Notes under the pieces: generated by a model | Databases searched by the model: none | What the model was told of the DNA's origin: nothing | The model's input: only the letters and a program-made list of their open reading frames with translations | Translations under genes and position numbers: made by a program | IMG/VR virus record: IMGVR_UViG_2684622542_000005 | DNA: 44,309 bases | Source of the DNA: a virus | Taxonomy: Duplodnaviria > Heunggongvirae > Uroviricota > Caudoviricetes | Direction: 5' to 3' (one strand) | Shown here: piece after piece, positions 32,182-34,040 of the stretch | Layout of the letters: every line of letters starts with the position of its first letter | How positions within the stretch are numbered: position 1 is the first letter of the stretch

Positions 32182-33062
32182 TGTTTCATGTTGATAATAA
32201 TTCCGGCGTGGCGAATATGCCTGCGCTGGCACCGGCGCAGAGTAATACCACCACCTGGTTTACCGAAGGTGACGGACAAAAAGGTATCAGCTGGATTGGT
32301 CAGGACTGGCTGAATATTCTCCAGGCCGAACTGCTGAATATTCTGGCTGAAGCCAGTATTCAGCCGGATAAGGCGCAGTTAAACCAGCTTACGCTGTCCA
32401 TTAAAGCCATTATCGCTGCGAATGCCTTTTCCCGGAAAAATAACCTGAAAGAAATTGCTGATGCCGGTGCGGAGGCCCAGCGTCTGGCCCGTGGTTATCT
32501 TGGTCTGGGGACGCTTGCCACAAAAAACAGTCTTGGTCCCGCTGACGTTAATGCCCTGGCGAAGGATCAGAATCTCGCCGACCTGGAGAATAAGGGAACC
32601 GCCCGTAATAATCTGGATGTTTACAGCAAAAGCGAAGGTGATAACCGTTACCTGCGCAGGGAGCAGAACGGCGCAGACATTCCGGATAAAGGGGCTTTTA
32701 TCGATAACGTCGGTTTACGGGAAACGGTAAACAGGGCGGCGAATGCCCTGCCATCGGACGGCACCGCCGTTGCCGCGAACAGGCTGGCAAATGCCCACAC
32801 AATTAATGGTGTTCCCTTTGACGGGACGCAGGATATCACTATCTCATCAGGAACAGTAACCGCCATAAGACTGGGGTCGGTGACCGCACATATGCCCGGA
32901 ACATGGGAAAGCTGGGATCTGAATCTGGGGGGCGGCAATGTTCTTACCGGAATTAAAGTACAGGATGTCGGTAAGAATACGGCAGATAACGTCGGCGGCG
33001 TGTATTACCGGCCGTTGCAGTATCTGTTAAATGGAGCATGGGTGACGGCTGCAAGTATATAA
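32181..33062 (+). CDS. Tail fibre protein; C-terminal third lies inside the invertible segment
   Basis: 293 aa; the reading frame passes through the left recombination site and ends in a variable C-terminus with [11 protein letters not shown]. Confidence 0.8.
32698..32723. other. Left invertase recombination site (gix-like)
   Basis: TTATCGATAACG-TC-GGTTTACGGGAA; right half matches the inverted right-hand site and the Hin/Gin site pattern. Confidence 0.7.
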
Positions 33063-33093
33063 TGATATTCAGAAGGCCTTCCGGCCTTCTTTA

Positions 33094-33615
33094 TTACTGT
33101 GGCTGCTCAGGCCATTTAATGGCGTTAAATTCAGCTTCTGTTTTAATGGCGGGTAGTTCCATTTTCTTCACCTGACTGATGTATGCCATCCATTGGGTAA
33201 GTGCTGCTCTGTCTTCATCGCTGATGGTGCCCAGTTGTAGCTCCGTTCTCCAGTCATTAATTTTTTCATATGCCTGATTAAGATATGACTGGCGCATTGC
33301 TTCCAGTTTTCTTGCGTAGTTAACCGGAATACGGGAGATTATGCCATTATCAAACTTCCAGTTTCCTGAAATATCCGTGCCTTCAGGGAGTTCATCGACC
33401 TCAACCACAGAAAACCCCGCAGGATACAGCGCCGAGGCGTCCTGTGATATTGAGCAGATAACGCCGCTGTCAGGTGTTATGCAAAGTTTATATTTTTTGG
33501 TGAATAATGGCAGGGATTCGTAGAAATCCTTACCATCTTCACTCTGGAAATACTGAACATTATTACCATATGGCATATTTTCAGGATAATAACGGGTTAT
33601 ATTTTTTAGTTCCAT
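33094..33615 (-). CDS. Tail fibre assembly protein (Mu U / Tfa-like)
   Basis: 173 aa on the minus strand inside the invertible segment; conserved Tfa-like C-terminus; AGGAGG before the ATG. Confidence 0.8.
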   Translation of the reverse strand: MELKNITRYYPENMPYGNNVQYFQSEDGKDFYESLPLFTKKYKLCITPDSGVICSISQDASALYPAGFSVVEVDELPEGTDISGNWKFDNGIISRIPVNYARKLEAMRQSYLNQAYEKINDWRTELQLGTISDEDRAALTQWMAYISQVKKMELPAIKTEAEFNAIKWPEQPQ

Positions 33616-33666
33616 AAAATCCTCCTGGAAATAAATCTGTTTTAAAATATATTATTTACTGACTAT

Positions 33667-34027
33667 TTATAACTGAGATACCGTAATCCATGTACCTCCG
33701 ACTAATTTTTGCAGGGGTCTGAATGCTATAAAATCGTTTGAAGCATCAACTTTACTGTCAATCTGCAGGCCTGCCATAACATTACCGTACGCAGAGTAAT
33801 ATGCCCCACCGTACATTACCTGCCTGTTCTCTGCTCCCAGCCTGATATCCTGGATATATCGGGAATCCGCATCCTGCTGTGTTATACCAGAAGTGATGTT
33901 TATGTCCTGCGTCCCGTCAAAGGGAACCCCATTAATATTTCTTGGGGTGGCGAGTCTATTCGCGGCAACGGCGGTGCCGTCCGATGGCAGAGCATTCGCC
34001 GCCCTGTTTACCGTTTCCCGTAAACCG
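33667..34027 (-). other. Alternative tail-fibre C-terminal cassette (start-less; joined to the fibre gene after inversion)
   Basis: Minus-strand frame continues in-frame from the shared repeat (..[30 protein letters not shown]...TVSQL*), ending just upstream of the minus-strand Tfa gene. Confidence 0.65.
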
Positions 34028-34040
34028 AGGTTTTCAGGAA
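34015..34040. other. Right invertase recombination site (gix-like)
   Basis: TTCCCGTAAACC-GA-GGTTTTCAGGAA, a 26-bp near-palindrome with central GA, closely resembling the Mu gix site. Confidence 0.75.

Follow-up and report, generated by a model that had tools for sequence, protein, structure and literature searches.

A miniature Mu-G-type invertible tail-fibre segment with one assembly gene beside two alternative fibre tips

The stretch of DNA analysed here, referred to as the window (44,309 nucleotides; IMG/VR virus record IMGVR_UViG_2684622542_000005, Caudoviricetes), holds a Mu-like, Sp18-like prophage of E. coli that appears complete, with transposase, head, tail, baseplate, com and mom genes present. 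Its tail-fibre locus begins with a baseplate wedge gene of the Mu gp48 / YmfQ type (31621-32181, plus strand; PF10076 Phage_Mu_Gp48, E 7.5e-22), whose product in Mu is the docking partner for the fibre (PMC11915804). Directly downstream lies the fibre ORF (32181-33062, plus strand), which in the present orientation encodes 293 aa. Its constant part, the equivalent of Sc, is located outside the invertible segment (32181-32709; phrog_1833 tail fiber protein, E 6.7e-141), and the remainder, tip A, occupies the expressed position (32711-33062) with a shared collar (32711-32851), a variable tip (32852-33059) and the stop codon. A G+C-rich hairpin (33071-33090; AGAAGGCCTTCCGGCCTTCT, palindrome I3) separates the convergent stops of tip A and of the sole tail-fibre assembly gene, here called Tfa (33094-33615, minus strand; 173 aa), which is preceded by its own AGGAGG ribosome-binding site. 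Judged from its sequence, the hairpin is terminator-like for both the fibre and the Tfa transcripts. An A+T-rich, non-coding spacer of 51 nt (33616-33666) lies between the start of Tfa and the stop of tip B (33667-34027, minus strand), which is silent at present, has no start codon, and consists of the shared collar (33887-34027) and its own variable tip (33670-33886). A DNA invertase gene (34106-34678, plus strand) follows. The position between the gp48 baseplate gene and com/mom is that of the G segment of Mu, with the difference that an esterase-like cargo gene is found here between the invertase and com/mom.

Residues 1-191 of the fibre align with residues 1-184 of the Mu fibre S (5yvq_A / 8ju3_A, E ~1e-46), and a 24-residue motif aligns to Mu NGADIPNKPLFIQNLGLQETVNRA. 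The crossover site occupies the position in the frame that it has in Mu S. The collar common to both tips comprises 47 residues and corresponds to the inner part of an inverted repeat. Beyond it, the variable parts of tips A and B, each about 70 residues long, are homologous and 31% identical. A preliminary description of this DNA had given the variable C-terminus as about 75 aa, which is to be corrected to 70 aa (32852-33059); the lack of a downstream assembly gene, also stated there, is confirmed by the ORF list and by tblastn. Tip A is 46-53% identical to the distal tips of the P1 S, SfMu and P2 gpH fibres (53% to the P1-type S tip), and tip B is 44-47% identical to those of P2/L-413C gpH, P7 Sv' (44%) and a Yersinia Mu-like fibre; the Mu S tip itself gives a weak direct match (domain E 0.5-12). 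With a Mu-S-like N-terminus and a tip resembling P2 H, P1 S and Mu S, the protein is a fibre of the Mu S / P2 gpH type, and by homology both tips are members of one P2-H / Mu-S tip family. Since tip A shows dN/dS values of 0.05-0.12, denoting purifying selection in several lineages, and an excess of synonymous changes (18.5 against 6.5 non-synonymous between the window and the copy in STEC2017-197; binomial P about 1e-6), it is regarded as selected coding sequence.

The segment is bordered by two gix-type crossover sites. The left one (32698-32723; TTATCGATAACG TC GGTTTACGGGAA), with its core TC at 32710-32711, is situated inside the fibre reading frame and differs at four positions from Mu gixR. 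The right one (34015-34040; TTCCCGTAAACC GA GGTTTTCAGGAA), with its core GA at 34027-34028, lies 65 bp upstream of the invertase gene and has five mismatches to Mu gixL. The cores are reverse complements of each other and the inner half-sites of both sites are identical at 12 of 12 positions, so that two inverted 26-bp sites with imperfect 12-bp half-sites and an identical 2-bp core are present, as is the rule for Gin/Hin/Cin/Pin sites. The 14-mer TTCCCGTAAACCGA, composed of inner half-site and core, occurs exactly twice in the 44-kb window, where 0.01 copies are expected by chance, and its two copies are inverted (32710-32723 on the minus strand, 34015-34028 on the plus strand). Longer (32703-32788 / 33950-34035, 86 nt, 93%) and shorter arms (32802-32851 / 33887-33936, 50 nt, 84%) make up the inverted repeat; in P1, too, the inverted repeats run deep into the segment and form shared coding sequence. 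The repeat is discontinuous, as had been noticed, and the size of the variable island inside it, first put at 22 bp, depends on the method: the repeat tool leaves a gap of 13 nt, the alignment a stretch of about 22 nt with low identity (roughly 32781-32802), coding for NAHT versus TPRN. An Rfam search of 31000-38500 returned no match.

The invertase (190 aa) carries a YIRVSTNDQ motif with the position of the catalytic serine and consists of a Resolvase domain (PF00239, E 1.6e-51) and an HTH_7 domain (PF02796, E 4.9e-15); it is also assigned to phrog_125 DNA invertase. Its residues 1-184 match the Mu Gin structures 4m6f/3uj3 (E 2.5e-88), with the motif MLIGYIRVSTNDQ aligned. The catalytic YxRVSTxxQ signature, the C-terminal HTH and the location next to the segment are those of a small serine recombinase of the Gin/Pin/Cin family, and the early proposal of a Gin-type system is in line with so close a relative of Mu Gin. 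Systems of this family have a Fis-dependent recombinational enhancer in cis, in the 5' part of the invertase gene. Here, a Fis-like 15-mer at +71 is kept in five invertase genes but overlies conserved codons, and no pair of Fis sites at the expected spacing was detected in the invertase gene by a loose pattern.

An inversion carried out in silico between the core dinucleotides yields an in-frame fibre of 296 aa, followed by the 51-nt spacer and then Tfa; the flip thus replaces the C-terminal ~117 residues of a short fibre of the Mu S type (293 aa to 296 aa). The prediction that the opposite orientation joins tip B in frame, with Tfa downstream, is thereby reproduced, and both exact proteins exist in public data. 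The inversion itself, a lack of evidence for which would have spoken against the early proposal, is documented by two genomes, FORC_029 and NCCP 13983, which carry the same prophage at the same insertion site (the elfC usher gene). Over 20,801 bp their sequences differ by nothing but an exact inversion, and the largest interval that fits it corresponds to 32710-34028 of the window (1,319 bp core to core) and is bounded by the core dinucleotides, so that the breakpoints agree with the 14-mer pair and with the ~1.3-kb segment originally delimited by gix-like sites and inverted repeats. Both orientations are also encountered among assemblies. Complete E. coli genomes with the window-type element show the window orientation in 17-21 cases and the flipped one in 5-6, and three of them harbor one copy in each orientation. 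For the type represented by Sp18 of O157:H7 Sakai, 182 copies with Tfa antisense stand against 25 with Tfa co-oriented. Exact protein look-up finds the A form on 997 contigs and the B form (296 aa) on 271 for the window type, and 298 versus 7 for the Sp18 type. The orientation with Tfa antisense (A) is accordingly the commoner one, at about 80-98%, a bias that could be due to phylogenetic inertia because many of the genomes are clonal. A real and active invertible tip switch is virtually certain from these data. PGAP annotation frequently lists the B-form fibre as a 'hypothetical protein' and treats the silent tip as a pseudogene.

Invertible fibre segments are textbook examples of phage bet-hedging on host range, and the two tips are supposed to confer different host ranges here as well. 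An inversion can also be turned to the benefit of the host: in E. coli K-12, the invertase PinQ flips the e14 P segment and thereby gives rise to StfE2, a product that blocks the adsorption of T2 (PMC12529663). The present invertase is of PinQ's family, and inversion might by analogy yield a fibre-tip protein by which other phages are kept from their receptors, without changing the host range of the prophage. Such a co-option is very improbable for the window, given the complete appearance of the prophage and the fact that the DNA of the related Sp18 was found packaged by Asadulghani et al. (PMC2669165). Moreover, no start codon outside the segment or near the crossover site was found for the silent tip B, whose open frame (33667-34029, minus strand) opens after a TAA and has its first ATG at 33816; therefore, no StfE2-like product is expected from it.

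The assembly gene is a member of PF02413 (Caudo_TAP; E 4.8e-19, 69.2 bits versus a cut-off of 22.1) and also matches phrog_136 (E 4.7e-56) and the structurally characterised Mu U (5yvq_B, E 4e-16). In the present orientation it is antisense to the fibre gene and adjoins the silent tip B. A second assembly gene was sought, since its discovery would have contradicted the view that only one is present and co-orientable, and none was found: tblastn with ten diverse Tfas gave no second homologue in the whole window, and the only ORFs on the plus strand from the fibre stop to the right site are one of 45 aa, which spans the hairpin, and one of 60 aa, which lies within Tfa in antisense. The locus thus offers one Tfa and no other ORF of fitting size in place of the two fibre/assembly pairs of classical segments. 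It resembles Mu G/Gin (also SfMu and D108) in having a Gin relative, a Mu-S-like N-terminus, alternative fibre C-termini and a Mu-U-like Tfa. Mu and SfMu, in contrast, carry S-U and S'-U', and hence two Tfa genes (PMC4406740, PMC11915804), each of which abuts its fibre part, whereas a spacer precedes the single Tfa here. Furthermore, the variable parts of Mu are several hundred aa long in a segment of about 3 kb, as opposed to about 70 aa and 1.3 kb. The C segments of P1/P7 (Cin) and the P segment of e14 (Pin) share the invertase family and the principle of the switch, but P1-type segments and e14 (tfaP, tfaE) have two convergent Tfa genes between two fibre parts. The two-pair layout that had been ascribed to Mu G and P1 C was indeed present in each of the SfMu, P1-type and e14 segments compared. 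A small invertible segment in carotovoricin Er, a contractile-tail particle, reportedly swaps only the C-terminal part of a fibre, too.

The single-Tfa layout is kept at 80-92% nucleotide identity in the O157:H7 locus L002, in the loci L010-L013, in C. rodentium and in all window-family loci of IMG/VR. It is a trait of the family and not a local accident. L002, which represents Sp18, is 86% identical to the window at the nucleotide level and has an identical layout with two tips, one Tfa, hairpin and invertase, while its Tfa is 61% and its tips are 36-41% identical to those of the window. The region of Sp18 has been flagged as an 'atypical' invertible host-specificity region, without dissection, by Asadulghani et al. 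(PMC2669165), the searchable text of which contains no description of the single chaperone or of its orientation problem.

The conservation of the layout bears on the idea that the segment is a decaying remnant of a two-pair segment which lost the Tfa of tip A, so that particles of the A form would be fibre-defective and non-infectious and the switch effectively an on/off switch. The segment is far smaller than Mu G (about 3 kb), only the hairpin is found at the position of a second Tfa, and some copies have decayed, e.g. that of STEC2017-197 with its frameshifted invertase. Against such decay speak the persistence of the layout across diverged lineages, the strong purifying selection on tip A in several of them, and the majority held by the A orientation in hundreds of assemblies. 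The explanation, already disfavoured on these grounds and judged improbable, is further opposed by a lineage which is locked in the A form. Here, tip B, the right gix site and the invertase were lost via one common deletion junction, and the lineage is found in different strains at three insertion sites: a lateral-flagellar flgL-like gene (M3), xdhA (CI5) and the gene of a type I restriction R-subunit (M18). For a Mu-like element, this implies new transposition or infection events. As the A-locked lineage occupies three sites, the A form evidently works with Tfa antisense, and the predominant orientation would be a functional one. The lineage also retains an intact Tfa under purifying selection (dN/dS 0.147; 21 synonymous and 13 non-synonymous changes, P 3e-7), although the selection seen could in part reflect recombination with invertible relatives instead of evolution after the deletion. 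The contig L102, in which a fibre and a Tfa lie beside pilus genes, was considered as another locked variant and set aside as uninformative, its Tfa being cut at the junction.

If Tfa is to act in the A orientation, it needs a transcript separate from that of the fibre gene, to which it is then antisense. The 51-nt spacer is a candidate site for an orientation-independent Tfa promoter: in all lineages of the window family, spacers of 51-121 nt separate tip B and Tfa, as compared with gaps of 0-3 nt or overlaps in Mu-, P1- and P2-type pairs and in other one-Tfa segments. A consensus scan detected no sigma-70 consensus site on the Tfa (minus) strand, and no convincing common motif emerged among the spacer types of three lineages; reading by eye yields weak -10/-35 candidates that stay below threshold. 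A repeated 14-mer, present in front of both the invertase gene and the gene after it, was rejected as a Tfa promoter signal, the Tfa spacer having no match to it.

The outcome of the promoter scan would suit an asymmetric switch, in which tip A needs no phage chaperone, either by folding itself or by borrowing a Tfa from one of the many prophages in the same host, while Tfa serves tip B alone and is made only when the segment is in the B orientation. Several Tfa genes are usual in E. coli genomes (e.g. tfaP and tfaE in e14) and might be borrowed from, and across lineages Tfa always adjoins the B-side tip and never the A-side tip. Truly asymmetric segments exist as well. A survey of 80 invertase loci of IMG/VR, in which a Tfa HMM was combined with reading of the ORFs, revealed three loci (L025, L036 and L088) with a gix pair, an adjacent invertase of 75-77% identity, two tips and one detectable Tfa, one tip thus lacking a chaperone gene; L088 resembles the window also in its short Mu-like fibre, the N-terminus of which is similar. 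Three further loci (L049, L065 and L081) proved on ORF reading to carry short second Tfas and hence are not one-Tfa segments. In L025, L036 and L088, however, the chaperone-less tip is of another sequence type, ending in ...ALGM or ...IAIGD, and Tfa overlaps its cognate tip gene, so that these look like truly tip-specific arrangements. In the window, by contrast, both tips are of the P2-H / Mu-S family and the spacer parts Tfa from tip B. The asymmetric switch is further at odds with the A-locked Tfa, which can never be co-transcribed with the fibre gene and yet is intact at three sites with a dN/dS of 0.15, and with the lack of co-variation between Tfa and the B-side tip. Overall, it is a possible explanation, though a distinctly less probable one than a chaperone serving both tips.

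Regarding co-variation, Tfas that are 85-90% identical adjoin Tfa-side tips which are only 30-40% identical to each other. Conversely, tips of 77% identity adjoin Tfas of 65% identity. At the level of sequence, Tfa and the tips are thereby shown not to co-vary. Tips A and B within one prophage (31-41% identity) are as divergent as the tips beside near-identical Tfas, and because near-identical Tfas pair with such different tips, Tfa is read as a generalist. Whether tip A requires any Tfa is judged from homology to the tips of Mu S and P2 H, which are said, second-hand in PMC9608196, to need Tfa; by this analogy tip A would probably need one, too. An attempt to match each tip with a cognate chaperone type, based on the two sequence types of the C-terminal Tfa half, was rejected because a Yersinia Mu-like phage shows near-identical tips beside both C-terminal types and because it is the N-terminal domain of the Mu Tfa that contacts the fibre (PMC9608196).

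Taken as a whole, the locus is most readily understood as a miniaturised Mu-G-type segment whose single generalist chaperone is expressed in either orientation, a reading held with slightly better than even confidence. In this model, the Gin-family invertase recombines the two gix sites and inverts 32710-34028, thereby swapping the 47-residue collar together with one of two receptor-binding tips of ~70 residues. In the B orientation, the late transcript would run from the fibre gene on into Tfa. In the A orientation, Tfa would be transcribed alone, most likely from the unusual spacer of 51-121 nt, and would fold tip A, too. For a shared and independently expressed chaperone taken by itself, the chances are about even. 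The same balance applies to the fuller statement that a single chaperone with its own signal in either orientation serves both tips, so that the predominant, infectious state is the one in which Tfa runs antisense to the fibre.

When fibres are exchanged to direct phages, pyocins or delivery particles to new targets, the Tfa chaperones form a bottleneck in practice. The window family represents a natural experiment in this respect, as one chaperone allele occurs next to tips of only 30-40% identity and the commonest orientation parts the chaperone from the fibre transcript. Should the chaperone be shared, host-range cassettes of the Mu type need not be built from fibre/chaperone pairs, the specificity of Tfa would be far less strict than one would conclude from the pairs of Mu, P1, P2 and e14, and the 1.3-kb module would represent a natural retargeting device with two states and of minimal size. 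If one Tfa folds both tips, tip swaps within this fibre class should need no matching chaperone, and tips of 70 residues with a collar of 47 residues would form a highly compact unit of exchange. Members of the family are common in pathogenic E. coli (O157 Sp18, O111 and other STEC), Shigella sonnei and C. rodentium, and the host-range logic of the family therefore bears on the spread of these transposable prophages. For C. rodentium, an RNA-seq supplement that may not be strand-specific lists at least CRP28 and CRP99 (PMC3072379).

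A complete transposable prophage of Mu type is present in the window, with transposase genes (near 1.7-4.8 kb) and head, tail and baseplate genes. Baseplate gene J (30548-31630) precedes a Mu gp48/YmfQ gene (31621-32181), directly followed on the plus strand by the fibre gene (32181-33062; 293 aa). Fibre residues 1 to ~190 show homology to the N-terminal region of Mu S (5yvq_A, 8ju3_A; E about 1e-46), and a motif of 24 residues aligns with the Mu S sequence at the constant/variable junction. Downstream lie a G+C-rich hairpin (33071-33090), a gene for a tail-fibre assembly protein (Tfa; 33094-33615) on the opposite strand (PF02413, E 4.8e-19; Mu U, E 4e-16), an A+T-rich spacer of 51 nt, a second fibre end, present as a minus-strand open frame without a start (33667-34029), and a plus-strand serine invertase (34106-34678) matching solved Mu Gin structures (E 2.5e-88). 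The currently expressed fibre end is termed tip A and the silent alternative tip B; Tfa is antisense to the fibre gene in the present A orientation and co-oriented with it in the B orientation.

The gix-like sites and inverted repeats from which the preliminary description had delimited an invertible segment are borne out. Both 26-bp sites are of gix type: their inner half-sites are identical and their cores (TC, GA) complementary. The inverted repeats comprise arms of 86 nt (93% identity) and 50 nt (84%), and the window contains exactly two copies of the 14-mer TTCCCGTAAACCGA, inverted relative to each other, with 0.01 copies expected by chance. In-silico inversion between the cores keeps the frame and yields a 296-aa fibre with the Tfa start 51 nt past the stop, agreeing with the proposal that the opposite orientation joins an alternative C-terminus followed by Tfa. 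The present fibre does end in a variable C-terminus, its variable part measuring 70 residues rather than the ~75 aa first given. The repeat is discontinuous as described: in the alignment, the ~22-nt island shows as a stretch of about 22 nt with low identity, but the repeat tool places a 13-nt gap there; the island equals four codons (NAHT vs TPRN). Since O157 relatives carry TPRN or TPKN in both repeat arms, it marks a recombination joint of tip A and not a functional element.

The segment inverts in nature. In E. coli FORC_029 and NCCP 13983, the prophage occupies a shared site inside the usher gene elfC, with elfD and ssuE as neighbours, and all its protein accessions agree between the two. 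Their sequences are identical over 20,801 bp save one exact reverse complement, whose largest compatible interval (window 32710-34028) runs core to core; this comparison and the presence of both orientations in genomes establish the invertibility that had been claimed. Among 5,426 complete E. coli genomes, the window type was found 17-21 times in A and 5-6 times in B orientation, and the type of Sp18, an O157:H7 Sakai prophage of the same family (86% nucleotide identity), 182 and 25 times; exact matches to the fibre protein were found on at least 997 (A, 293 aa) and 271 (B, 296 aa) public contigs for the window type and on 298 and 7 for the Sp18 type. All these counts lack phylogenetic independence. 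The complete E. coli genomes DLI.5a (hits H14/H30), TOE17 (H20/H31) and AST46 (H8/H34) each harbor two family copies at different loci, one per orientation. Mu G(+) particles infect K-12. By analogy, A-form virions being those that infect E. coli would explain the A excess.

Only one assembly gene, and none downstream of the present fibre, had been reported, and a second one was not detected: ten diverse Tfa queries matched 33094-33615 only in the whole 44 kb, and plus-strand open reading frames from the fibre stop to the right site were limited to 45 aa (across the hairpin) and 60 aa (antisense within Tfa). The one-Tfa layout characterizes the whole family. An arrangement of constant fibre part, tip, hairpin, reversed Tfa, spacer, reversed second tip, gix, invertase and DUF6645 gene is shared by O157:H7 (L002), STEC299 (L010), STEC2017-197 (L011), SCU-171 (L012), STEC2018-553 (L013, flipped), Citrobacter rodentium, and, among 80 IMG/VR loci found by searching with the invertase, all contigs of the window family. 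In all lineages, Tfa adjoins the tip of the same side across a non-coding gap of 51-121 nt.

The Mu G, P1 C and e14 P segments work by the same principle with proteins of the same families, but their defining feature, two fibre/assembly pairs, is lacking in the window segment. That classical segments carry such pairs, as had been stated, was confirmed for SfMu, P1-type phage and e14; in these, P2-type phages and L-413C, an own Tfa follows each fibre part within 0-3 nt. Three IMG/VR loci (L025, L036, L088) have Gin-type segments with a single Tfa too, which differ in that the chaperone-less tip is of another sequence type and Tfa overlaps its partner. Related Gin-type segments at L061:4153-4899 and L047 (IMG/VR) apparently carry three tip fragments or small non-PF02413 ORFs of ~80-90 aa after the tip, which hints at multi-tip variants resembling shufflons and at further types of chaperone. 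In the O157 Sakai prophage Sp18, the region has been recognized as invertible and host-specificity-determining; its genes were called 'distinct from those of Mu' and it was scored 'atypical' (PMC2669165). Tail fibre and tail-fibre assembly genes are among the enriched classes in a large survey of programmed inversions, which does not address the single-chaperone layout (PMC9881135); the searchable literature yielded no account of the lone chaperone or of its orientation problem.

Tips A and B both belong to the distal-tip family of P2 gpH, P1 S and Mu S fibres and are 31% identical. The dN/dS of tip A between lineages (0.05-0.12) indicates strong purifying selection; between the window and STEC2017-197, 72 codons show 18.5 synonymous against 6.5 non-synonymous changes (P about 1e-6). 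Degeneration into an on/off switch fits the data poorly, as does host co-option of the kind described for PinQ/StfE2 (PMC12529663). The strongest evidence on tip A function comes from a lineage found in E. coli M3 (L003), CI5 (L095) and M18 (L096), in which a deletion (window 33622-34611) has removed tip B together with the right gix site and nearly all of the invertase gene. It is thereby locked in A orientation, and its Tfa always lies antisense. The three strains share one deletion junction despite up to 5% divergence in the 2 kb around it; a stretch of ~144 bp there has no match to the window and resembles the STEC299-type Tfa-upstream spacer. The insertion sites, a lateral-flagellar flgL-like gene (M3), xdhA (CI5) and a type I restriction R-subunit gene (M18), imply new integrations of this Mu-like element after the deletion, and virions with the A-form fibre are therefore most likely infectious. 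On the main rival reading, less likely but plausible, tip A either folds without a phage-encoded Tfa or relies on that of another prophage. It is weakened by the locked lineage, in which Tfa is intact and under selection (dN/dS 0.147; 21 synonymous, 13 non-synonymous changes; P 3e-7). The frameshift annotated in the invertase of STEC2017-197 (L011:2473-2963), where both tips and Tfa are intact, may likewise lock the segment.

Tfa is 85-90% identical among the window, STEC299 and STEC2017-197, whereas their Tfa-side tips, one of which resembles the Mu S tip, share only 30-40%; O157 and STEC299 have Tfa-side tips 77% identical and Tfas only 65% identical. No co-variation of Tfa and tip was seen among these four, and near-identical Tfas beside such divergent tips indicate that one allele copes with tips as different as A and B. 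In the most likely mechanism, Gin-type inversion between the gix sites swaps a 47-residue collar and 70-residue tip onto a constant Mu-S-like stalk, and a single generalist Tfa would fold either tip. Tfa would be readable from the late fibre transcript in the B orientation; in the A orientation this transcript would stop at the hairpin, so that Tfa would need a transcription signal of its own, the best candidate location being the unusual spacer, which the locked lineage retains, or the sequence immediately before it. A consensus scan found no consensus promoter for Tfa, and the spacers of different lineages were unrelated on comparison. The Tfa-upstream spacers L010:1949-2034, L011:1918-2038, L012:1882-2002 and L003:3117-3200 contain a conserved ~85-nt element, absent from the 51-nt spacer of the window, that opens with a perfect 8-bp hairpin (CTGAAA(A)TA-TGCG-TTATTTCAG) overlapping the tip-B stop codon, with no T-run.

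In Mu, com/mom directly follow the invertase, whereas this place is here taken by a gene at 34764-36829, interrupted by an N run (35358-35625; full-length copy L097:11765-13819), and DUF1378 and DUF826 genes precede com and mom. The encoded protein (~684 aa) has a sialic-acid-specific acetylesterase domain (SASA, PF03629) and a C-terminal DUF6645; it looks like a NanS-p-like cargo gene, a kind known from Stx phages, in a Mu-like prophage. The 14-mer ACTCTGTTT(T/A)ATTC lies just upstream of the invertase gene (34052-34065) and of the esterase-like gene (34730-34743; within a CTGTTT-N7-AAACAG dyad), two matches with 0.35 expected, and may be a shared regulatory site. Four N runs of about 255-270 bases (1323-1578, 11395-11654, 24327-24598 and 35358-35625) are spaced roughly regularly and look like masking rather than assembly gaps. 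Annotation is inconsistent in NCCP 13983 (L001/L098) and O157:H7 ECP19-198 (L002): the B-form fibre is a 'hypothetical protein', the silent tip a pseudogene 'missing N-terminus', and an intact 295-aa O157 fibre is split to give a 67-aa 'tail fiber protein'. In the Stx-converting phage records LC727881.1 and LC727895.1 (hits H1, H2, H92, H93), a Mu-like element of the window family has transposed into the Stx prophage; its sole annotation reads 'region of the inserted Bacteriophage Mu-like phage'.
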